Shown: positions 18 through 9,617 of the stretch, in pieces
Layout of the letters: each line of letters begins with the position of its first letter
Numbering within the stretch: position 1 is the stretch's first letter
DNA from: Polynucleobacter sp. MWH-HuK1
Lineage (GTDB): Bacteria; Pseudomonadota; Gammaproteobacteria; Burkholderiales; Burkholderiaceae
Length of the DNA: 9,617 bases
Assembly: GCF_018881815.1 (NCBI RefSeq)
Contig: NZ_JACVPP010000001.1
Location: 399,352 to 408,968, forward strand
Reading direction: 5' to 3'
Program-made: the position numbers and the translations under genes
Notes under the pieces: generated by a model
What the model was told of the DNA's origin: nothing
Database searches by the model: none
Seen by the model: only the letters and a program-made list of their open reading frames with translations

Positions 18-46
18 AAAGCCCGCTTATAAAGCGGGCTTTTTTA
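18..46. terminator. Bidirectional intrinsic-terminator-like hairpin at the 3' end of the recombinase gene
   Basis: The stem is AAAGCCCGC (18-26) paired with GCGGGCTTT (34-42), with a 7-nt loop. A T-run at 40-45 follows on the + strand and an A/T tract sits on the other side. The hairpin overlaps the recombinase stop codon (44-46, minus). Confidence 0.55.
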
Positions 47-613
47 TATCAACTCTACAGCTTTACGCAGCATATCGTCATTGGCATCTACATAGATTGC
101 TGTAGTAGATACAGATTTATGCCCCATTAGACGCATTAGCACACGCAGACTAGTGCCATTACTCGCTATGCCTGTTGCGTAAGTCCGCCTTCCGCTATGA
201 CTTGATGCTCCACTTACGCCTGCTTTGCGATACAACCAAAAGAACCATTGCGTAAGTGTATTAGCTGTAAATCCTTTTGACTTTTCTGTATAAAACAATG
301 GCAAAGACATATCTTTGACAGGATAGTGTTTTAAGTAGGTGCCTAATTCAGTTCGTAGTTTCTCATTGACAAATACAACTCGTGCCTTATTACCCTTAGT
401 TTGGTTGGCGGCTAAACGAATCTCACCCTTAATCGAACCATCCTCATTTCGCACATCACAAATTCTTAGCGCAGCAATTTCCCCTACCCGCATTCCACTC
501 CAATAGCTAGTAAGCAACATCGCCCTATTTCTAATGCTGTATTTCTGTTTAGTGCTGATATAGCGCAAAACCATATCAATTTCGCTTTGGTTTAGTGTTT
601 TAGCTTGCGCCAT
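44..613 (-). CDS. Short tyrosine recombinase/integrase (189 aa, catalytic domain only)
   Basis: The ORF shows the tyrosine-recombinase catalytic signature in order: R in GMRVGEI, K in TKGNKARVVF, H-x-x-R in SSHSGRRTYAT, and H...Y in GHKSVSTTAIY. It has no N-terminal SAM-like or arm-binding domain, so it is FimB/FimE-sized. Confidence 0.85.
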   Translation of the reverse strand: MAQAKTLNQSEIDMVLRYISTKQKYSIRNRAMLLTSYWSGMRVGEIAALRICDVRNEDGSIKGEIRLAANQTKGNKARVVFVNEKLRTELGTYLKHYPVKDMSLPLFYTEKSKGFTANTLTQWFFWLYRKAGVSGASSHSGRRTYATGIASNGTSLRVLMRLMGHKSVSTTAIYVDANDDMLRKAVELI

Positions 614-1589: not shown

Positions 1590-2166
1590 AGAGTTAATGT
1601 TTGAATGCTTTCGCTAGATTCAACCTACACTGAGCCTTAAGCAACAGGCTCAGTAATAGAAAAGGACTTTCGCTGAGTTCTTTACTACATCACTAAGGGC
1701 ATAACCATTTAGGTAAGGGCGGCTTCGCTGTCTCCTTTTATATGCGGCTGAAATGAAGCGCAACAATGACAACAGCATAAGTGGCTACCGTTGTCCTGTT
1801 TGAAAGTTGCTGTGTGAGCAGAGCTCTCTCGTGTTGTTATAGCACTATAGGCTATCAACTTTATGCTGATTAATTCTCAATTCAATTAGCTAGCAAAGCT
1901 AACGGCGTCCTGTTAAGGATAGTGAATATAAGTCTCTGCTACCGCACAGAATTTCCATCGCTGCGCACACCAATGGCCAGCTTTAGGGCGACATAACAAC
2001 TGAGTGTCGCTGCTCATTATCAGTAGTAGTAAATGGCATACAGATTGCTCTGCTGTCAAAGTTATTTATATGAGTGAAAAGAAATTCAGAATGAAAGTGG
2101 CGTTTTATTTGGTAAGACGGTAATTTGAGTTGAATTTCGGTTGTTCTCAATGCTTTTCCGAATTTA
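1590..2166 (+). other. ORF-free, G+C-enriched tract: candidate structured RNA, long leader or cis-acting DNA region
   Basis: The supplied six-frame track shows no ORF on either strand across 1475-2166. Stem-loops include TTGAAT/ATTCAA (1601-1623), CTGAGCC/GGCTCAG (1630-1653), GACAAC/GTTGTC (1768-1795), TTAGCT/AGCTAA (1886-1902) and GCGACA/TGTCGC (1988-2010). The pentamer TCGCT occurs six times. The strand is unknown. Confidence 0.3.
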
Positions 2167-3570: not shown

Positions 3571-3624
3571 CAGAGTTGAAAATCCTTGTGTCGGTGGTTC
3601 GATTCCGCCCCGGGCCACCAAGAA
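3571..3624 (+). repeat. tRNA-Phe 3' fragment (att-like site, copy A): anticodon loop to CCA plus AGAA
   Basis: The fragment contains TTGAAAA (3576-3582, GAA anticodon), TCCTT, variable loop GTGTC, T-arm GGTGG-TTCGATT-CCGCC (3593-3609), acceptor 3' strand CCGGGCC (3610-3616) and A-CCA (3617-3620). It closely parallels the 3' half of E. coli tRNA-Phe as I remember it. There is no matching acceptor 5' strand or D-arm upstream, so this is not a functional tRNA. Confidence 0.8.
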
Positions 3625-3629
3625 ATACC

Positions 3630-3659
3630 AAAACCACCTTCGGGTGGTTTTTTCTTTTT
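3630..3659 (+). terminator. Intrinsic terminator (UUCG tetraloop)
   Basis: The stem is AAAACCACC paired with GGTGGTTTT around a TTCG loop (3639-3642), followed by a T-run at 3648-3653. Confidence 0.8.
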
Positions 3660-3679
3660 GGGGCTCGAATTAAAACGGT

Positions 3680-3693
3680 AATAGGCATAGAAT
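3680..3693 (+). promoter_or_regulatory. Promoter module AATAGGCATAGAAT (-10-like TAGAAT at 3688-3693) upstream of the DUF2703-like gene
   Basis: An identical 14-mer recurs at 4190-4203. It is followed by GGGGG (3701-3705) and ATG 3712, and preceded by TTAAAACG, which resembles the right half of the 17-bp dyad. Confidence 0.45.
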
Positions 3694-3711
3694 ATTTTCA
3701 GGGGGCTTTAT

Positions 3712-4163: not shown

Positions 4164-4180
4164 TGTCGTTTAAAACGACA
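4164..4180. promoter_or_regulatory. 17-bp dyad operator candidate, copy 1 (TGTCGTTT-A-AAACGACA)
   Basis: It has perfect 8-bp inverted arms and a 1-nt centre. It lies 30 nt upstream of ATG 4210 and immediately upstream of the TTAAAT/TAGAAT -10-like boxes. Confidence 0.55.
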
Positions 4181-4189
4181 AAATCATTA

Positions 4190-4203
4190 AATAGGCATAG
4201 AAT
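4190..4203 (+). promoter_or_regulatory. Promoter module AATAGGCATAGAAT (-10-like TAGAAT at 4198-4203)
   Basis: It is identical to 3680-3693. Only 6 nt separate TAGAAT from ATG 4210, and no Shine-Dalgarno sequence lies between them. Confidence 0.45.
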
Positions 4204-4209
4204 TAAAGT

Positions 4210-4545
4210 ATGAGAAAGATTTGTATTGCTCTCTGCCTAAGTTTATTTGCCAGCCTCATTCATGCGGTTGGCATGCCTACGTCTAACGATGGGCTAGATC
4301 AATTACATTTCCAGCATGTCATTCAGCATGATTGCCATACTCAGGCTGATACAAAAATTGATAAAACACATCAATCTACTAATCACCAAGCCCATCATCA
4401 ATGTTGCTTAGGGGTAGTTGCTAACCTATCTTCTAATCAATACAGGCAACCTGACTTTTCTAGTCATTTTGTTCCTCATGTTCCTCAATTAATTGTTGAG
4501 GCAATTCCTAGTCATATCTTCAAGCCACCAAGATTCATTAGTTAA
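4210..4545 (+). CDS. Secreted His-rich small protein, 111 aa, putative periplasmic metal binder
   Basis: It has the signal peptide MRKICIALCLSLFASLIHA. The mature part has 11 His and 3 Cys, including HHQCC. It sits in the metal cluster. Confidence 0.55.
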   Translation: MRKICIALCLSLFASLIHAVGMPTSNDGLDQLHFQHVIQHDCHTQADTKIDKTHQSTNHQAHHQCCLGVVANLSSNQYRQPDFSSHFVPHVPQLIVEAIPSHIFKPPRFIS

Positions 4546-4604
4546 TTAAGTAGTTAACTAATTTTTTGTGGCATTAAGCCACAGTAATCTATTGGAGAAA
4601 TCTT

Positions 4605-5279
4605 ATGAACATGACTCACTACATGGAGTTGTTGGCTGTTAACCAGCCTTGGAATTTAATTATTTTTATGGCCATTCCAGTCATTCTGGCTGAGACTTTG
4701 GCAATCACCGAGTTGTACCTATTATTCACTCGCAAGTTTGATGGAGCGGTTTATTACCTGAATCGTTTTGCTGGCATTGCTGTAGGCATTTATTTTGTTG
4801 GAATCATCATTTACATCATGACGAATGCGGTAATCCCAATTACCAAGGCGGGTGAATGGAGAACAGTGATTGATGTGATTGCTGTGGGTACTTACCTCAT
4901 AGCAGGATTGCCGCTCATTTGGATTGCTTTACAGGAAATGGGATTAGTCAATAAAGCATTGGATCAAATGGGTAAGCTAAAGATTCATGCGATCTGTGTT
5001 GCCTTGTTCTTGGTGTTTGGACACATCGCTATGATTGCCGGCATGGTTGATCCAAGCATTCTTGGTTATAAAGGTGCGAGTGCTCACCAAATGAGTTCAG
5101 GTGCGGATGATCATGAGTTCTGTCACCCCGAAAAGCATGAAAAGATGATGAAACAACATCAGAAAATGATGGGCAATATGCCTTCCAATCAAATGCCTAA
5201 GAACAGCGGACAGGTGCCTATGAATGATGGGCAAATGAAACAAAACATGCCAACGAACAACCAAGGACATACGCACTAA
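4605..5279 (+). CDS. Polytopic inner-membrane protein with a Met/His-rich C-terminal tail, 224 aa
   Basis: GGAG precedes the ATG. There are about 5-6 hydrophobic segments. The tail reads HPEKHEKMMKQHQKMMGNMPSNQMPKNSGQVPMNDGQMKQNMPTNNQGHTH, and Met-rich tracts of this kind are typical of Cu(I)-binding proteins. Confidence 0.65.
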   Translation: MNMTHYMELLAVNQPWNLIIFMAIPVILAETLAITELYLLFTRKFDGAVYYLNRFAGIAVGIYFVGIIIYIMTNAVIPITKAGEWRTVIDVIAVGTYLIAGLPLIWIALQEMGLVNKALDQMGKLKIHAICVALFLVFGHIAMIAGMVDPSILGYKGASAHQMSSGADDHEFCHPEKHEKMMKQHQKMMGNMPSNQMPKNSGQVPMNDGQMKQNMPTNNQGHTH

Positions 5280-5286
5280 TGAGAGG

Positions 5287-5308
5287 ATTGCCCGCAAGGG
5301 CAATTTTT
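5287..5308 (+). terminator. Intra-cluster intrinsic terminator or attenuator
   Basis: The stem is ATTGCCC (5287-5293) paired with GGGCAAT (5298-5304), with a GCAA loop. The T-run reaches 5308. Confidence 0.6.
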
Positions 5309-5334
5309 ACTTGTTGAAAGGAATGGTTAAAAAA

Positions 5335-5796
5335 ATGAAATTAATAAATCAACATAGAAGGCTGATCTTTTTTGGATTGGCTTTATTGCCAAGCTTGAGT
5401 TTTGGCGCAACACAAAAGCCTGTCATTACGATGTGGAAGAGCCCCACCTGCGGTTGTTGTAAAGACTGGGCGGACCATGTGGAAAAGAATGGCTTTGCTG
5501 TTAAAACCTATACAGATGGCAATGACGAAATTCGTAAGAAGTTAGGTATGCCTATTCAGTTTGGCTCTTGCCATACAGCCTTAATTGGTGGCTATGTCAT
5601 TGAAGGACATGTTCCTGCTAAAGAAATTAAGCGACTTTTGGTGGAAAAACCTAAAGCCATTGGTTTAGCCGTTCCTGCTATGCCGCTTGGCTCTCCTGGT
5701 ATGGATGGGCCTGAGTACAAGGGCAGAAAAGACCCCTACGATGTTTTGTTAATTGGATTAAATGGCAAGCCCAGTGTTTATCAATCCTACAAATAA
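5335..5796 (+). CDS. copG: CopG-like DUF411 periplasmic metal-binding protein
   Basis: It has the signal peptide MKLINQHRRLIFFGLALLPSLSFG. Motifs SPTCGCCKDW, SCHTALIGGYVIEGHVPA and GLAVPAMPLGSPGM are hallmark DUF411/CopG motifs. The track start TTG 5311 and ATG 5323 are possible alternative starts. Confidence 0.85.
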   Translation: MKLINQHRRLIFFGLALLPSLSFGATQKPVITMWKSPTCGCCKDWADHVEKNGFAVKTYTDGNDEIRKKLGMPIQFGSCHTALIGGYVIEGHVPAKEIKRLLVEKPKAIGLAVPAMPLGSPGMDGPEYKGRKDPYDVLLIGLNGKPSVYQSYK

Positions 5797-5807
5797 AGGA
5801 ATTTGAA

Positions 5808-6074
5808 ATGAGCGAAATTAACTTAGATGTAAGCGGTATGACTTGTGGCTCTTGCGTCAAACATGTCACTAACGCACTTAAACCATTAGAAGGTGTACAG
5901 GATGTATCTGTAGACTTAGCTACCGGAAAAGTTAAGGTGACAAGAGCCACCGAAAAGGCGGATGACTTAATTGCGGCCTTAATAGAGGATGGTTATCCAG
6001 CTCAATTGGATACTGGTGGCACCACTCATGCCAAGCAGGGCGGCGGCTGTGGTGGTGGGTGTAAGTGTTCATGA
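5808..6074 (+). CDS. Heavy-metal-associated (HMA) domain protein, CopZ/MerP-like, with a Cys/Gly-rich tail, 88 aa
   Basis: It has the GMTCGSCVKHV metal-binding loop and a ferredoxin-like HMA layout. There is no signal peptide. The tail is GGGCGGGCKCS. AAGGA precedes the ATG. Confidence 0.85.
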   Translation: MSEINLDVSGMTCGSCVKHVTNALKPLEGVQDVSVDLATGKVKVTRATEKADDLIAALIEDGYPAQLDTGGTTHAKQGGGCGGGCKCS

Positions 6075-6091
6075 TGTCGTTTTATGAGACA
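6075..6091. promoter_or_regulatory. Degenerate copy of the 17-bp dyad (TGTCGTTTTATGAGACA, 14/17)
   Basis: The left arm and centre are identical to the 8488-8504 copy, and the right arm has 3 mismatches. It lies directly after the HMA stop and 33 nt before the dehalogenase ATG. Confidence 0.3.
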
Positions 6092-6123
6092 ATGGCTGTT
6101 CATAAGAATAATTAGGAGCCGGT

Positions 6124-6816
6124 ATGTATAAGTTGATAGCTTTTGATGCCTATGGGACATTGCTTGATGTGTATTCCATGGGGCAGTTAGCGGAAGAATT
6201 GTTTCCGGGGCACGGTCAAGCATTGAATTTAATGTGGCGTGATCGCCAAATTGAATACACCCGTTTAGTGACAATGAGTGATCCTAACCCAAACGGTAGC
6301 AAACACTATCTTTCATTTTGGGAGATCACCATTCGCTCATTACGTTATGTATGTAAGCGCATGAGCTTACACCTCACTCCAGAATACGAGAGGCGACTGA
6401 TGGATCAGTATGCTAAGTTGAAGAGCTTTGACGACAGCCTGGAAGTGCTCAAGTCAGTAAAACAAAAAGGTATTTCAACGGCTATTTTATCTAATGGAAG
6501 CACAGAAATGCTTGCCACCGTTATAGAAAGCAATGGCTTAAAACCCTATTTGGATAAAGTTGTCACCGTTGAAGATGTGCGCTTATTTAAAACCGCCCCC
6601 CAAGCCTATGAGCTATTACTAAAAGCTTTTCCTGTGAAAAAGGAAGAGATTCTGTTTGTCTCTAGTAATGCTTGGGATGCCTTAGCGGCAAAGTGGTATG
6701 GTTTTGATGTATTTTGGGTGAACCGTTTGAATCATCCGTTTGAAGAGATTGGCGAAAAGCCAAGCTATGAAGGTAGTTCTCTAAATCAGGTTCTTGATGT
6801 TATTGAGATAAATTAA
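6124..6816 (+). CDS. Type II (S)-2-haloacid dehalogenase, HAD superfamily, 230 aa
   Basis: It has the nucleophile motif FDAYGTLLDV, plus RDRQIEYT, SNGS, FKTAPQAY and SSNAWDALAAKWYGF. This is the full set of L-2-haloacid dehalogenase signature residues. AGGAG precedes the ATG. Confidence 0.85.
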   Translation: MYKLIAFDAYGTLLDVYSMGQLAEELFPGHGQALNLMWRDRQIEYTRLVTMSDPNPNGSKHYLSFWEITIRSLRYVCKRMSLHLTPEYERRLMDQYAKLKSFDDSLEVLKSVKQKGISTAILSNGSTEMLATVIESNGLKPYLDKVVTVEDVRLFKTAPQAYELLLKAFPVKKEEILFVSSNAWDALAAKWYGFDVFWVNRLNHPFEEIGEKPSYEGSSLNQVLDVIEIN

Positions 6817-6827
6817 TAAACTTTTTT

Positions 6828-6891
6828 GGCCGGGTTGCTGTTGGATTAAGCAGCCTCAGTCTCGGTCGATTCCGCCCCGGGCCACCAAGAA
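6828..6891 (+). repeat. tRNA-derived att-like site, copy B (core 6866-6891)
   Basis: The core TCGATTCCGCCCCGGGCCACCAAGAA is identical to copy A. The upstream GGCCGGG (6828-6834) can pair with the acceptor 3' strand. It is separated from the core by a GCTGTT/AGCAGC hairpin (6837-6854). Confidence 0.75.
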
Positions 6892-6895
6892 CACC

Positions 6896-6919
6896 AAAAC
6901 CACCTTCGGGTGGTTTTTT
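6896..6919 (+). terminator. Intrinsic terminator, same sequence as at 3630-3659
   Basis: The sequence is AAAACCACC-TTCG-GGTGGTTTTTT. Confidence 0.8.
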
Positions 6920-6962
6920 CTTTTCTGGGCGTAGAGTATAGAAAGCGCACTAGGAGAGACCT

Positions 6963-7478
6963 ATGACTACAACCATACCCACCAATCAAGAACTTCAAGT
7001 TTTAGACGCTTTGCGTGCTCACAGAAAAAGGCATCGCCAAGGACTCCCAACTCAAATTACGGCTCATGTCGAGCAACCCATAGGACCATTGACTGTTGGG
7101 CAAAAAATATCGGATGCGGTGGCAAGAACGGTAGGCTCTTGGAAGTTCATCATTTTTCAAAGCGTTTGTATTTTGGGTTGGATTACTTATAACTCTGTAA
7201 ACAATGACAATGTTTGGGATCCATACCCTTTCATTCTTTTGAATTTAATGCTGTCATTTCAAGCGGCTTATACAGCGCCAGCAATCATGATGAGTCAGAA
7301 TCGACTCTCGGAGATAGATCGACAACATGCTAATAACGACTTTGAAGTCAATGTAAAGGCGGAGCTAGAAATCGAATTGCTTCATCAAAAGATCGACATG
7401 ATGAAAGAAAAAGAGCTTTATGCTTTAACTAAGGCGGTTGAGGCTTTGAGCGAGAAATTAGATAGCTATAGAGGGTAG
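6963..7478 (+). CDS. DUF1003-like membrane protein, 171 aa
   Basis: Motifs include GSWKFIIFQS, DPYPFILLNLMLSFQAAYTAPAIMMSQNR, DRQHANNDFEVNVKAELEI and LHQKIDMM, matching my memory of DUF1003. AGGAG precedes the ATG. Confidence 0.7.
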   Translation: MTTTIPTNQELQVLDALRAHRKRHRQGLPTQITAHVEQPIGPLTVGQKISDAVARTVGSWKFIIFQSVCILGWITYNSVNNDNVWDPYPFILLNLMLSFQAAYTAPAIMMSQNRLSEIDRQHANNDFEVNVKAELEIELLHQKIDMMKEKELYALTKAVEALSEKLDSYRG

Positions 7479-7492
7479 GATAGGAACTCCTC

Positions 7493-7527
7493 GGCCCTGG
7501 TTCGATTGCGCCCCGGGCCACCAAGAA
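7493..7527 (+). repeat. tRNA-derived att-like site, copy C (core 7502-7527, one mismatch G7508)
   Basis: The arm GGCCCTGG (7493-7500) is an imperfect inverted repeat of the acceptor 3' strand CCCGGGCC. The core is TCGATTGCGCCCCGGGCCACCAAGAA. Confidence 0.75.
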
Positions 7528-7532
7528 ACATC

Positions 7533-7556
7533 AAAACCACCTTCGGGTGGTTTTTT
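7533..7556. terminator. Intrinsic terminator shared by the convergent DUF1003-like and sugE genes
   Basis: The sequence is AAAACCACC-TTCG-GGTGGTTTTTT. The A-run on the left makes it usable from both strands. The sugE stop is at 7571. Confidence 0.75.
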
Positions 7557-7570
7557 CATTTATAGCTCAG

Positions 7571-7885
7571 CTAGCCCATCTTCAGAAAAATGACTCCAAG
7601 CAGAATCAATGCGGCCCCGATCCAACGAATTGGAATATTGGGGTCACCAAAAACTAAAACGCCAATAGCAAAAGTACCCACTGCGCCAATGGATGTCCAT
7701 ACCGCATACGCTGTTCCGATAGGAATGCCTTTTAATGAATACCAAAGCAGGAATCCACTCAGTGCCATGCTTGTTCCAGCCAAAGCAATGCCCAAGATTT
7801 TCATGTTGGGATTGTCTGATAGCTTTAATCCAAGAGGCCAGCCAATCTCAAAAACACCTGCCATTAATAAAGATAGCCAATACAT
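7571..7885 (-). CDS. sugE: SMR-family SugE/Gdx-type small multidrug/guanidinium exporter, 104 aa
   Basis: MYWLSLLMAGVFEIGWPLGLK and PIGTAYAVWTSIGAVG align to E. coli SugE motifs. I chose the start at the internal ATG 7885. The 38-codon extension of the track ORF (to 7999) runs into the att-like core and is rejected. Confidence 0.85.
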   Translation of the reverse strand: MYWLSLLMAGVFEIGWPLGLKLSDNPNMKILGIALAGTSMALSGFLLWYSLKGIPIGTAYAVWTSIGAVGTFAIGVLVFGDPNIPIRWIGAALILLGVIFLKMG

Positions 7886-7960
7886 GTTGGGCCTAGAGTT
7901 AACCAAAGAATTTACTTTATCAAATTTTCTCGCGCCATAAAACAGGATTAGACATCTTCG

Positions 7961-7994
7961 GGCCTGGCTCGATTCCGCCCCGGGCCACCAAGAA
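7961..7994 (+). repeat. tRNA-derived att-like site, copy D (core 7969-7994)
   Basis: The arm GGCCTGG (7961-7967) pairs with CCGGGCC (7980-7986) over 7 bp including one G-U. The core is identical to copies A and B. Confidence 0.75.
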
Positions 7995-8000
7995 CTCAAA

Positions 8001-8030
8001 CAGTCGCCTTTCGGCGGCTGTTTTCGTTTT
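8001..8030 (+). terminator. Intrinsic terminator, different sequence from those after copies A-C
   Basis: The stem is CAGTCGCC paired with GGCGGCTG around TTTC, followed by TTTTCGTTTT. Confidence 0.65.
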
Positions 8031-8076
8031 CACTCTCTAATCACAGTGCTAGACGCTATTGGACTTTATATATCGC

Positions 8077-8093
8077 TGTCGTTTAAAACGACA
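8077..8093. promoter_or_regulatory. 17-bp dyad operator candidate, copy 2
   Basis: The sequence is TGTCGTTTAAAACGACA. On the minus strand it is followed after 4 nt (GCGA) by TATATA (8067-8072). It lies 5 nt beyond the stop of the 8099..8449 gene. Confidence 0.5.
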
Positions 8094-8098
8094 AATCA

Positions 8099-8449
8099 TC
8101 ACAACAGTTCAATTCCAAAGCCCTTCATCAGCAAAGCAAACAGTCCAAAACATATAACCGTCACAACAACACTTGCTCCCATCGTCAGCCAAAAACCTAG
8201 TCTTGGTAGCAAATAGGGAAATAGTAAAAACATCGGCAATGTTGGAATGACATACCAAAAAGTGTAATAAGCGTGGTTTGCTATTTTCTCTTCCGATTGA
8301 TTCTCAATGTAGAGCCAAGTAAGAGTAAGTAATGTCATCAAGGGCAATGCCGCAATGAATCCCCCTAACTTATCGCTTCGCTTAGCAACTTCGCTAATGA
8401 ATACAATCATCCCTGCTGTCAGTAGATATTTTGTGATTATCCAAGTCAT
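8099..8449 (-). CDS. Small 4-TM inner-membrane protein, DUF3147-like, 116 aa
   Basis: The profile is hydrophobic, with FISEVAKRSDKLGGFIAALPLMTLLTL near the N-terminus. The family name is recalled only weakly. AAGG precedes the ATG. Confidence 0.6.
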   Translation of the reverse strand: MTWIITKYLLTAGMIVFISEVAKRSDKLGGFIAALPLMTLLTLTWLYIENQSEEKIANHAYYTFWYVIPTLPMFLLFPYLLPRLGFWLTMGASVVVTVICFGLFALLMKGFGIELL

Positions 8450-8487
8450 AGACGCCTTAAGTGTTTTTGCTTGCCCAATTATAGGAA

Positions 8488-8504
8488 TGTCGTTTTAAAC
8501 GACA
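8488..8504. promoter_or_regulatory. 17-bp dyad operator candidate, copy 3
   Basis: The sequence is TGTCGTTTTAAACGACA. On the minus strand it is followed after 4 nt (TTCC) by a consensus TATAAT (8478-8483), about 29 nt upstream of ATG 8449. Confidence 0.6.
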
Positions 8505-9352: not shown

Positions 9353-9617
9353 CTACCCGTCTTGTTTGGCTAGCTTCAGATTCATATTGAGCCAATTAGG
9401 TATGCCATCTTCTGCTCGTACCGCCTTGAATCCTTTTTCTCTGAGGCGCTTTACAGCTTCATAAGATAGAACGCAGTATGTGCCTCTACAGTAAGCAACA
9501 ATCGTTTTAGATTTTGGAAAATCTCCTAATCTCTCTTCTAATTCCTCAAGGGTGATATTGAGCGCCCCCTCAAGATGAGAGTGAGCGTACTCTTCACTAG
9601 GCCGCACATCTAAAAGT
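9353..9617 (-). CDS. Rhodanese-domain protein, 5'-truncated by the window edge (probably the C-terminal domain of an ArsR/SmtB-rhodanese fusion regulator)
   Basis: The frame stays open to position 9617 (..LLDVRPSEEY). The M in the track is an internal GTG. The motifs DVRPSEEYAHSHLEGALNI and AYCRGTYCVLSYEAV resemble ArsR-rhodanese fusion proteins as I remember them. Confidence 0.65.
   Translation of the reverse strand, partial: LLDVRPSEEYAHSHLEGALNITLEELEERLGDFPKSKTIVAYCRGTYCVLSYEAVKRLREKGFKAVRAEDGIPNWLNMNLKLAKQDG

Follow-up and report, generated by a model that had tools for sequence, protein, structure and literature searches.

The 17-bp palindrome P1 is a repeated junction element of the gene cassettes that are piled up beside the tRNA-Phe gene, only some of its copies overlapping promoters, as seen in its distribution, its positions, its behaviour at junctions and its promoter overlap. 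From these we infer that P1 binds a protein and has a role in recombination and in repression. The best explanation, a tentative one, is that of a putative protein-binding palindrome in the arms of cassette attachment sites and at cassette junctions, which secondarily overlaps promoters of the cargo. The window analysed is a stretch of 9,617 nucleotides from Polynucleobacter sp. MWH-HuK1, with the following features (related loci are designated by L numbers).

3595–3658, plus strand: tRNA-Phe 3' fragment and terminator, long type; tRNA-Phe identity from the anticodon loop (3576)
4164–4180, no strand: P1 copy 1, junction between the DUF2703 gene and the His-rich-DUF6803-DUF411-HMA operon
4175–4203, plus strand: promoter-like ACGACA-17 nt-TAGAAT, 6 nt before the ATG of the His-rich gene
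6075–6091, no strand: degenerate P1 (14/17) at the HMA/HAD junction, left half intact, right half decayed
6862–6925, plus strand: tRNA-Phe 3' fragment and terminator
7498–7561, plus strand: tRNA-Phe 3' fragment and terminator
7965–8028, plus strand: right-most tRNA-Phe 3' fragment (T arm, acceptor, CCA) with its own terminator hairpin (7998–8023), repeat family D1
8029–8076, plus strand: conserved 'type II' leader, from the tRNA fragment/terminator to P1 copy 2; homologous leaders in L001, L058, L079, L077 and L118
8077–8093, no strand: P1 copy 2, 86 nt past the CCA of the tRNA fragment and 5 nt past the stop of the 116-aa gene
8099–8449, minus strand: 116-aa membrane protein gene (PF28289 / PRK09272), with P1 on both sides
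8478–8483, minus strand: -10 box TATAAT, at 4 nt from copy 3 and kept in four diverged contexts
8488–8504, no strand: P1 copy 3, 35 nt past the stop of the 269-aa TonB-like gene, overlapping the -35/spacer of the 116-aa gene promoter

A motif search of the window placed perfect P1 (TGTCGTTT-W-AAACGACA) at 4164, 8077 and 8488, as TGTCGTTTAAAACGACA at 4164–4180 and 8077–8093 and as TGTCGTTTTAAACGACA at 8488–8504, and a copy with three mismatches (TGTCGTTTTATGAGACA, 14/17) at 6075–6091; the three perfect copies and the 14/17 copy of the sequence-only reading were all found again. Up to three mismatches, the window contains 4 matches against 0.07 expected, a number reached in 0 of 200 dinucleotide shuffles. 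The palindrome is real and far from chance. Isolated 8-mer half-sites are absent from the window and the related loci, which indicates that the unit is the whole dyad. The half-site TTAAAACG proposed earlier is present at 3670–3677; it matches 8 of the 10 right-half bases, lies only 7 nt from the next TAGAAT and is thus at best a remnant.

Related loci, about 50 in number and drawn from at least 29 named Polynucleobacter genomes, carry about 100 copies of P1. The copies per genome were bounded indirectly, the counts of the genome scan being matches listed and lower bounds. Dyad-bearing blocks number at least 119 among the matches listed, 39 of which come from 29 named Polynucleobacter genomes, and the remaining listed blocks include freshwater betaproteobacterial genome bins. 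Each genome has one to three blocks among the matches listed, and a tRNA-Phe fragment usually shares the stretch, as is the case in 42 of the 52 P1 loci. The centre is A or T in every copy of these loci, and perfect and one-mismatch copies stand at 80:15. Two sister palindromes exist, GTCCTTT-W-AAAGGAC and GTCGATT-W-AATCGAC, and the linkers are conserved too. The former, which unlike P1 played no part in choosing the loci, occurs 25 times in 392 kb (perfect to one-mismatch copies 25:12), usually 28–29 nt from P1 within a conserved composite unit. Only 2 P1/sister hybrids were found, versus 80 P1 and 25 sister palindromes. By sequence, P1 appears to be the most conserved member of a small family of 15–17-bp palindromes, GTC-NNTT-W-AANN-GAC. 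Two diverged integrase genes also retain P1 in their 5' part, as codons for CRFKRQ, but three other homologues are without it, which points to selection at the DNA level. A selected palindrome resembling a protein site is supported.

The window is part of the Polynucleobacter tRNA-Phe cassette island, with four tRNA 3' fragments inside. The island boundary that the sites were thought to span does not lie there, the whole window being island cargo. The distances between P1 and the tRNA fragments are quantised on both sides: downstream P1 is found at 50–175 nt (42 of 111 fragments), and upstream at either 37–38 nt (6 cases) or 215–246 nt (11 cases). A core-like 13-mer, CCTTGTGTCGGTC, is repeated in the arms, with 62 hits in total against 6.6 expected by chance; 28 of the 62 are non-core, and 24 of these lie within 300 nt of a tRNA fragment. 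Twelve non-core copies have a palindrome at a distance of 14–19 nt; in the composite unit they stand between P1 and its sister. Roughly half of the tRNA fragments, among them three of the window's four, have no palindrome nearby, and P1 therefore cannot be essential for integration. Several P1 copies are far from any tRNA fragment (e.g., window copies 1 and 3 and those in L040, L047 and L104), which weakens the reading of P1 as a palindromic element of attachment arms.

Relative to genes, for which every ORF of at least 80 aa was taken in a crude call that used no gene finder, P1 is present in 22 of 50 (44%) convergent versus 6 of 53 (11%) divergent intergenic regions (Fisher p = 3e-4), and in 12 of 28 versus 2 of 40 when regions with tRNA fragments are removed. 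It is often placed 0–10 nt 3' of stop codons, and in the tight convergent pairs of L108, L131 and L065 the 22-nt or 29-nt spacer is almost all dyad. The dyad is thus abundant at gene 3' ends, which the sequence-only reading had named as counting against its operator; the position of P1 argues against a simple operator.

Homology between islands frequently breaks at the palindromes. A palindrome holds 94 of 684 homology-block endpoints, versus 9 for random positions and 41 for random intergenic positions (maximum 58), and 67 endpoints stop at most 2 nt from its far edge. In L032 and L117 both arms are common and different cargo lies between two palindromes. In the window, homology to L110 begins exactly at the copy 1 dyad; L110 carries the same His-rich operon after a full leader (palindrome 2, linker, palindrome 3, linker, P1), and the His-rich operon of L130 has no dyad. 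At the degenerate copy, L079 homology stops at 6091 and L049 homology begins at 6077, each half travelling with its neighbour, the left with the HMA and the right with the HAD gene. Blocks shared with L096, L058, L083 and L043 end at the edge of copy 2. L057 homology ends at 8486, 2 nt past the copy 3 edge, with a different cassette beyond.

Such breakpoints would also be left if P1 itself were the site-specific crossover site, a second-tier, attC-like cassette junction with 5-bp inverted arms around a 7-bp AT-rich overlap (TGTCG-TTTWAAA-CGACA), at which an island recombinase would swap or insert cargo. This explanation is rather doubtful. Tyrosine integrases use tRNA stem-loops as cores with the same 5-7-5 layout, and the candidate recombinases are a 188–196-aa, catalytic-domain-only tyrosine recombinase or the 403–424-aa integrases; small tyrosine recombinases occur in 9 of the 53 loci, the window (44–613) among them. 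The replacement of cargo between two palindromes with conserved flanks, the half-sites segregating with the adjoining modules at the HMA/HAD junction, the existence of P1/sister hybrids, the attC-like proximity to stop codons and the dominance of perfect copies are also in its favour. However, no pair of 'empty' and 'occupied' sites was found among the loci compared, and a metagenome junction search returned a single, non-informative contig. The central A/T is oriented at random along the arrays, which leaves no polarity; for a recombinase, arms of 5 bp within unconserved flanks are very short; and copies within integrase and other ORFs would be destructive. In L144, about 200 nt of left flank moved along with the upstream P1, which is therefore not the junction there.

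Three promoters had been proposed to carry the dyad. Copies 1 and 3 do overlap conserved sigma-70-like promoters, whereas the '-10' of copy 2 is not conserved. Copy 1 lies, as described earlier, just upstream of TTAAAT and TAGAAT (4198–4203), and the ATG follows at 4210. The right half of the copy, ACGACA, resembles a -35 hexamer and is separated by 17 nt from the conserved TAGAAT. This promoter-like ACGACA-17 nt-TAGAAT is a portable 'P1 + TAGAAT' module, which methyltransferase operons in L096 and L104 have at their head in the same geometry. Read on the minus strand, copy 2 leads into GCGA and TATATA (8067–8072) and copy 3 into TTCC and TATAAT (8478–8483). This identical geometry holds in the window, but TATATA, part of the type II leader, is replaced by ACCCGC, GCCTGC or another sequence in the leaders of L001, L058 and L079. 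The arrangement 'dyad-TTCC/TTTC-TATAAT/TATCAT' before the 116-aa gene is kept in the window, L049, L103 and L144. Copy 2 is an arm or 3'-end copy and not a conserved promoter. An activator of the MerR type, for which the spacer would be 21 bp, finds no place here, the TTGTAA '-35' being missing in L049 and L103.

These promoters bear on a further explanation, an unlikely one, in which P1 is the operator of one dimeric, island-wide repressor, KorA/KorB-like, with sites over the promoters of many cargo genes, the non-promoter copies being remnants or roadblocks. A perfect 17-bp palindrome with an AT-rich centre is a typical site of a helix-turn-helix dimer, the overlap at the 116-aa gene is conserved in four contexts, ACGACA-17/18-TAGAAT heads three different operons, and an integrase gene and a 254-aa gene keep sites in their 5' part at the DNA level. 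On the other hand, P1 is enriched in convergent and depleted in divergent regions, with convergent spacers of 22 nt or 29 nt that are nearly all dyad, its distances from tRNA fragments are quantised, and much of the apparent -10 enrichment at 17–18 nt is the AATAAT of a conserved linker with no downstream gene. The flanked genes are functionally unrelated: in place of the suggested metal/sugE/membrane-protein regulon, P1 also flanks porin, Kef antiporter, methyltransferase, cupin, HAD and integrase genes across about 50 loci. Of the earlier repressor operator there stand a selected palindrome and two copies at conserved promoters; the 3'-end bias and the lack of a metal regulon speak against it. 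Among the proteins annotated across related loci, no regulator or excisionase-like gene is consistently linked to P1. The gene cut at 9353–9617, formerly the nearest regulator candidate, is the 3' part of a 224-aa ArsR (HTH_5) and rhodanese protein (whole in L001, 9323–9997), which has its own palindrome, ATTCAAT-N6-ATTGAAT, in a divergent promoter without the dyad.

A REP-like hairpin acting as single-stranded nucleic acid, either a 3'-end stem-loop stabilising or ending transcripts or a unit copied by a REP-associated (RAYT-type) transposase, is highly improbable: the 3'-end and convergent preference, palindrome classes that differ on both arms with rare hybrids, the BIME-like mosaic with conserved linkers and a predicted hairpin of 7–9 bp (-6.6 to -8.3 kcal/mol as RNA) agree with it, but this hairpin is weak and without a U tract, the tRNA fragments each bring a terminator (e.g., -17.6 kcal/mol at 7998–8023), terminating ribosomes would melt any copy 0–5 nt past a stop codon, the sequence is invariant beyond mere pairing with only A or T at the loop centre, there is no genome-wide spread among the matches listed, and no RAYT-type transposase is among the proteins annotated.

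Several known systems share features with P1. The REP/BIME elements of enterobacteria, the REPINs of Pseudomonas and the dRS3/NIME of Neisseria are likewise short palindromes at 3' ends and between convergent genes, in mosaics with conserved linkers that coincide with rearrangement junctions. Unlike them, P1 stays for the most part within the tRNA-Phe flexible island and its mobile elements, and is shorter and perfectly symmetric, with no GTAG head, no ATTCCC-N8-GGGAAT and no associated transposase seen among the proteins annotated. As with the KorA/KorB operators of IncP plasmids, many near-identical perfect palindromes occur on a mobile element, some overlapping -35 or -10 boxes and others far from promoters; in contrast, the P1 'element' is a chromosomal array of independent cassettes in many species, strongly 3'-end biased and with no regulator gene found linked. 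Like integron attC, P1 is palindromic and located at cassette junctions, often right after the cassette stop codon, array homology breaks at it, and the arrays are rich in toxin-antitoxin and small cargo genes. However, attC is imperfect and variable (57–141 nt) and P1 is an invariant 17 bp; P1 islands have no IntI/attI/Pc platform, and their cassettes lie in both orientations, with their own promoters and borders that are primarily tRNA-Phe fragments. Tycheposon-type tRNA-linked arrays reportedly have the same context of tandem cargo and tRNA 3'-end repeats; the P1 island resembles these and additive islands in context, not in the dyad. Additive flexible genomic islands carry tandem cargo by a tRNA gene with tRNA 3'-end repeats between (PMC10872708). 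The string 'palindrom' appears nowhere in the text of that paper, and a literature search for the letters of the dyad found no paper.

The attP arms of lambda-type systems hold sites for accessory proteins (IHF, Xis, Fis), and some directionality factors double as repressors (P2 Cox, 186 Apl, P4 Vis, KplE1 TorI). P1 is similarly found at fixed distances on both sides of a core, beside repeated integrase-type sites, and all mobile units of the family carry the palindromes irrespective of cargo. As for the sites of repressor-type directionality factors, some copies overlap promoters, including an integrase gene start. The likeness rests on established knowledge of those systems, the binder of P1 being putative. 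Unlike lambda-type arm sites, P1 is a perfect palindrome and not asymmetric or a direct repeat, it lies at the outer, cargo-facing arm edge, and half of the attachment sites are without it. Textbook accounts of lambda-type systems do not feature palindromic accessory sites on the outer edge of the att arms, which counts against the attachment-arm reading.

In the preferred reading of P1 as an attachment-arm and junction palindrome, cassettes would integrate serially at the tRNA-Phe 3' end, each with palindromes at set distances on either side of the attachment core (the tRNA fragment). These would bracket core-like 13-mers resembling integrase arm-type sites and form the inner edge of the conserved arms, where variable cargo begins. 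Adjoining the cargo edge, P1 would for this reason lie next to stop codons and mark the points where island homology breaks; as the last conserved element before the cargo, it would often overlap the first cargo promoter, as a -35 surrogate 17–18 nt before TAGAAT or 4–6 nt before a -10 box. The cassette system may have a dimeric DNA-binding protein for these palindromes, be it an accessory factor, a directionality factor or an island-wide repressor. The bound protein would additionally repress or insulate cargo genes, which is likely at window copies 1 and 3. The P1-family palindromes would then be the standard 'chassis' of mobile gene cassettes in Polynucleobacter and related freshwater betaproteobacteria.

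The palindrome described in the sequence-only reading, here called P1, is present as perfect copies of TGTCGTTT-W-AAACGACA at window positions 4164-4180 (copy 1), 8077-8093 (copy 2) and 8488-8504 (copy 3), and as a degenerate 14/17 copy at 6075-6091. Allowing up to three mismatches, the window holds four matches where 0.07 would be expected, a number reached by no shuffled sequence out of 200. All copies were found where that reading had placed them, far above expectation, and the coordinates that it gave for the -10-like boxes agree with the sequence. In the window and the related loci searched, the 8-mer half-sites are found only as parts of the dyad, and a DNA uptake sequence was rejected on this ground. 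An intrinsic terminator or known RNA was also rejected: no Rfam match was obtained at the dyads with E up to 1, and the hairpin is weak, of only -6.6 to -8.3 kcal/mol and without a U tract.

When one genome per species (596 Gb) was scanned, at least 119 blocks containing the dyad were found. At least 39 of them belong to at least 29 named Polynucleobacter genomes; others come from freshwater betaproteobacterial genome bins. The centre base in these loci is invariably A or T; scattered matches in other phyla, with a centre that is often G or C, look like chance. Among the matches listed there are one to three blocks per genome, often adjacent or at contig ends, and these include 2.0-Mb contigs with a single block. 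Since, in addition, a fragment of tRNA-Phe is present in 42 of 52 loci, P1 appears largely confined to islands among these matches, and a genome-wide REP element was discarded. Several blocks carry three or four P1 copies, and perfect copies stand to one-mismatch copies as 80:15. A sister palindrome, GTCCTTT-W-AAAGGAC, occurs in 25 perfect and 12 one-mismatch copies in 392 kb, and a third class, GTCGATT-W-AATCGAC, is also present; hybrids between the classes are rare (n = 2). The loci were chosen for a perfect P1, a choice of which the sister-palindrome, breakpoint and spacing statistics are independent. In 2.9 million viral contigs only scattered single matches were found (seven for P1 and five for the sister palindrome), and a phage operator was rejected. 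A literature search found no paper with the dyad sequence and nothing relevant on Polynucleobacter palindromes.

Some occurrences deserve separate mention. In Limnohabitans parvus (L121 6873-6991) the dyad lies 52 nt downstream of tRNA-Phe and 30 nt upstream of an integrase gene, and in a 52%-GC betaproteobacterium (L131 995-1018) it occupies the spacer of two convergent genes. In another low-GC proteobacterial bin (L088 6800-6917, L091 1-135) it centres a 31-bp palindrome, GAACAATTGTCGTTTWAAACGACAATTGTTC, repeated in tandem with a period of 75 nt, which looks iteron- or centromere-like.

Polynucleobacter are among the commonest freshwater bacteria, and their strain-level diversity resides mostly in flexible islands. 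Small cassettes integrated in tandem make up the window, which is a flexible island of the "additive" kind, formed by serial integration at tRNA-Phe, and all its content is island cargo. A 64-nt unit recurs in it, in which the T arm, acceptor stem and CCA of a tRNA precede a terminator hairpin.

Mobile-element features of the window
44-613, minus strand: tyrosine recombinase, 189 aa, catalytic domain only; R, K, HxxR, H and Y all present
1878-2015, minus strand: Polynucleobacter-1 RNA (RF01718)
3595-3658, 6862-6925, 7498-7561 and 7965-8028: the four copies of the 64-nt unit

An intact tRNA-Phe(GAA) with a matching 3' end was detected by ARAGORN in related loci, where BLAST finds up to eight copies of the unit per 8 kb. 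Between the copies lie one or a few genes, which include toxin-antitoxin pairs, an OprB porin, a Kef antiporter, HAD hydrolases, methyltransferases and metal-related genes. In L001, the related locus that extends the window, the same genes sit between integrase genes and the intact tRNA-Phe, and freshwater metagenome contigs encode proteins identical to those of the window. The 189-aa recombinase has the C-terminal halves of XerA and XerD as best NCBIfam matches, and homologues of it are encoded in 9 of 53 related loci. An additive flexible island beside a tRNA gene is a structure of a known kind (PMC10872708).

The Polynucleobacter-1 RNA, which scores 89-99 bits in Rfam (gathering score 37), is also found at L065 527-662 and L105 2294-2429. 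Each of the three copies lies within one kind of integrative element, near a 188-189-aa tyrosine recombinase, accompanied in the window and L105 by a DUF6641 gene, and the motif may be part of a mobile element rather than of host regulation. The sugE (SMR) gene forms a separate cassette between two tRNA fragments; its upstream region (7886-8076) contains no guanidine riboswitch and no other Rfam family at E up to 1.

The palindromes occupy defined places relative to the tRNA fragments, which represent the attachment core. P1 lies within 260 nt downstream of 40 fragments, and the intervening leaders fall into a few conserved types. The most frequent order runs from fragment and terminator through about 55 nt, the sister palindrome and a 28-nt linker to P1; in longer leaders the third palindrome and a 23-nt linker are inserted ahead of P1. 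The distances between fragment and palindrome are quantised, at 50-175 nt downstream (42 of 111 fragments) and at 37-38 nt (n = 6) or 215-246 nt (n = 11) upstream. A 13-mer from the tRNA-Phe core, CCTTGTGTCGGTC, recurs in the 28-nt linker and in the long upstream arm. It has 62 matches in all, against 6.6 by chance; 28 are outside the core and 24 of these lie within 300 nt of a fragment (for example at L029 1334, 1381 and 6367, L056 1900, 1947 and 2737, and L058 3607). These non-core copies are probably integrase arm-type sites. The layout resembles an attP, with predicted arm-type integrase sites and with palindromes where the arms meet the cargo; a lambda-type attP arm has fixed core spacing on both arms, and so has P1.

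Tentatively, and with somewhat less than even confidence, P1 and its sisters are taken here as protein-binding palindromes in the standard arms of cassettes that integrate at tRNA-Phe. Observed are their distribution, their spacing, their behaviour at junctions and their overlap with promoters; that a protein binds them, or that they act in recombination or repression, is what we infer from the sequences. The palindromes would form the boundary between conserved arms and variable cargo. Such a position would explain the fixed core spacing, the adjacency to stop codons, the homology breakpoints and the replacement of cargo.

Breakpoints were defined as the internal endpoints of BLASTN blocks of at least 200 nt between loci (n = 684). 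Within 6 nt of a palindrome lie 94 of them, compared with 9 for random positions and 41 (maximum 58) for random intergenic positions. At 67 endpoints the block takes in the palindrome and ends within 2 nt of its far edge; tRNA fragments account for another 223. Copy 1 is the exact start of homology to L110, and homology to L057 stops at 8486, 2 nt past the edge of copy 3, where a different cassette follows in reverse orientation. At the degenerate copy, homology to L079 stops at 6091 and the HAD-gene homology to L049 starts at 6077; its halves segregate, the left half-site with the HMA gene and the right one with the HAD gene. L032 and L117 have both flanks in common up to the palindrome on each side, and differ in the cargo between. 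The two porin genes of L117 and L063 have no nucleotide similarity by which a possible inversion of their OprB cargo could be judged. A metagenome scan for an empty site, with P1 and the flank on the side of a TonB-like 269-aa gene gave one contig, L144, in which a 116-aa membrane protein gene and its P1 promoter stand in another context and carry about 200 nt of the left flank.

The breakpoints, hybrid sites and half-sites would also suit P1 as the true crossover site, with a 5-7-5 layout as in the tRNA arm. This is rather unlikely, given that the orientation of the central base is random, the arms are short, P1 copies occur inside ORFs and no pairs of empty and occupied sites were found. A more elaborate proposal is an undescribed second layer of cassette exchange, in which P1 and its sisters, as 17-bp mimics of a tRNA stem-loop with 5-bp arms and a 7-bp AT-rich loop, would serve an island recombinase that swaps or inverts cargo between chassis integrated at tRNA-Phe; we regard it as improbable.

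On the promoter side, the sequence-only reading had proposed P1 as the operator of a putative regulon comprising the metal operon, the sugE side and the DUF3147-like gene. The orientation of the flanking genes bears on this directly.

Intergenic regions with at least one palindrome (crude gene calls, ORFs of at least 80 aa)
Convergent genes: 22/50; regions with tRNA fragments excluded, 12/28
Tandem genes: 35/193; regions with tRNA fragments excluded, 17/146
Divergent genes: 6/53; regions with tRNA fragments excluded, 2/40

Convergent and divergent regions differ with p = 3e-4 for all regions and p = 4e-4 without those containing tRNA fragments (Fisher). Many copies lie 0-10 nt downstream of a stop codon, and some spacers of convergent genes are almost wholly dyad (22 nt in L108 and L131, 29 nt in L065). 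This bias towards convergent genes and 3' ends is the opposite of that of promoter operators. An abundance of the dyad at gene 3' ends, seen in both the convergent bias and the stop-codon proximity, is also what the sequence-only reading had itself named as contrary to its proposal.

Promoter overlap is nevertheless observed at certain copies. Ahead of the 116-aa gene (8099-8449, minus strand, with P1 on either side) the order P1, TTCC/TTTC, TATAAT/TATCAT, about 25 nt, Shine-Dalgarno and ATG is conserved in the window/L001, L049, L103 and L144. The four units are 71-82% identical and have different neighbourhoods, that of L144 being outside any tRNA array. At copy 1 the right half, ACGACA, stands 17 nt ahead of a TAGAAT conserved upstream of the His-rich operon; L130 has this operon without the dyad, and ACGACA-17/18-TAGAAT also heads methyltransferase operons in L096 and L104. 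Copy 2 belongs to the arm layout: it lies 86 nt past CCA and closes a "type II" leader common to L001, L058, L079, L077 and L118, and its proposed promoter is not conserved because the homologous leaders have other sequence where the window has TATATA. Across related promoters, the spacing to the -35/-10 boxes is kept at copy 3, in four contexts, and in the TAGAAT module of copy 1, and is not kept at copy 2. An apparent excess of -10-like hexamers at 17-18 nt is largely the AATAAT of the conserved linker, with no gene downstream. In two diverged integrase genes P1 falls within the 5' part and encodes CRFKRQ; three other homologues keep the peptide motif as CRFK/CRFR and lack the dyad. The retention of both in two genes and of the peptide only in three suggests selection on the DNA. 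In the His-rich gene, 6 nt separate the end of TAGAAT from the ATG, which suggests a leaderless transcript. A box, AATAGGCATAGAAT, occurs before the DUF2703 gene (3683-3696) and before the His-rich gene (4190-4203).

A plain island-wide operator would account for the conserved -35/-10 geometry at copy 3 and the copy 1 module. It is nonetheless unlikely in view of the convergent enrichment and divergent depletion, the unconserved geometry of copy 2 and the functional incoherence of the flanked genes, which code for an OprB porin, a Kef antiporter, methyltransferases, a cupin, a HAD hydrolase, metal-related proteins, integrases and a 254-aa protein. The notion of a shared functional regulon falls on this diversity. 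As cassette-arm palindromes, on the other hand, P1 and its sisters are the final conserved element ahead of the cargo, and hence often overlap the first cargo promoter; a protein bound at P1 would also repress or insulate the cargo, a likely effect at copies 1 and 3.

The search for a binding protein was equally unfavourable to the regulator suggested before. A repressor of the ArsR/SmtB type would be expected, through autoregulation, to have the P1 operator in its own promoter as well. The full ArsR-rhodanese gene (224 aa, L001 9323-9997) is divergent from an operon of 141-aa protein, rhodanese and methyltransferase genes. Its 40-bp divergent promoter (L001 9283-9322) has no dyad, even at three mismatches, and contains a different palindrome, ATTCAAT-N6-ATTGAAT (L001 9299-9318), present once per locus and probably its own operator. 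The ArsR-rhodanese protein was accordingly dropped as the P1 regulator. MerR-type sites have the dyad centred between -35 and -10 with a spacer of 19-20 bp. Such an activator was rejected at copy 3, where the spacer would be 21 bp (TTGTAA...TATAAT) and TTGTAA is missing in L049 and L103, and at copy 1, where the dyad overlaps the -35 itself. In the related loci examined, P1 has no consistent association with any helix-turn-helix gene. MarR/SarA-like genes (104-122 aa) show no consistent link and, like HigA-type antitoxins, are not recognisable as a directionality factor, and the small ORFs adjoining integrases show neither a consistent link nor a recognisable excisionase. An NtrX-like response regulator (receiver plus Fis-type HTH), with a 5-7-5 site architecture that presumably resembles P1, is merely the conserved 5'-side neighbour of tRNA-Phe.

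That P1 works as a REP-like hairpin, in RNA or in single-stranded DNA, is very unlikely: the 3'-end and convergent preference and the mosaic clusters with conserved linkers fit REP/BIME elements, but one to three blocks per genome among the matches listed compare with an expected tens to hundreds genome-wide, and no RAYT (Y1 transposase) was found among about 50 proteins scanned.

P1 shares features with attP arm sites, attC, REP/BIME, Neisseria dRS3/NIME and KorA/KorB operators, and departs from every family in one or more defining features, except for the arm-site model, with which it has the fixed core spacing in common. Integron attC sites are imperfect palindromes of 57-141 nt with paired core sites, extrahelical bases and variable sequence, whereas P1 is a perfect 17 bp of invariant sequence with unconserved flanks. 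An integron has IntI with attI and Pc heading a co-oriented array; here the arrays begin at tRNA-Phe and hold cassettes in both orientations, and the small recombinase scores 49.8 bits against an integron-integrase cut-off of 265.

P1 is best classed as a short, palindromic repeat at the junctions of a mobile-element system, whose tRNA-linked array is itself of an already known kind. For annotation, the dyad gives no basis for inferring a metal- or sulfur-responsive regulon. It provides a handle for delimiting cassettes in genomes and metagenomes, for capturing its putative binding protein and for testing whether cargo is exchanged site-specifically. The second layer of exchange, if true, would represent integron-like shuffling in genome-streamlined freshwater bacteria.
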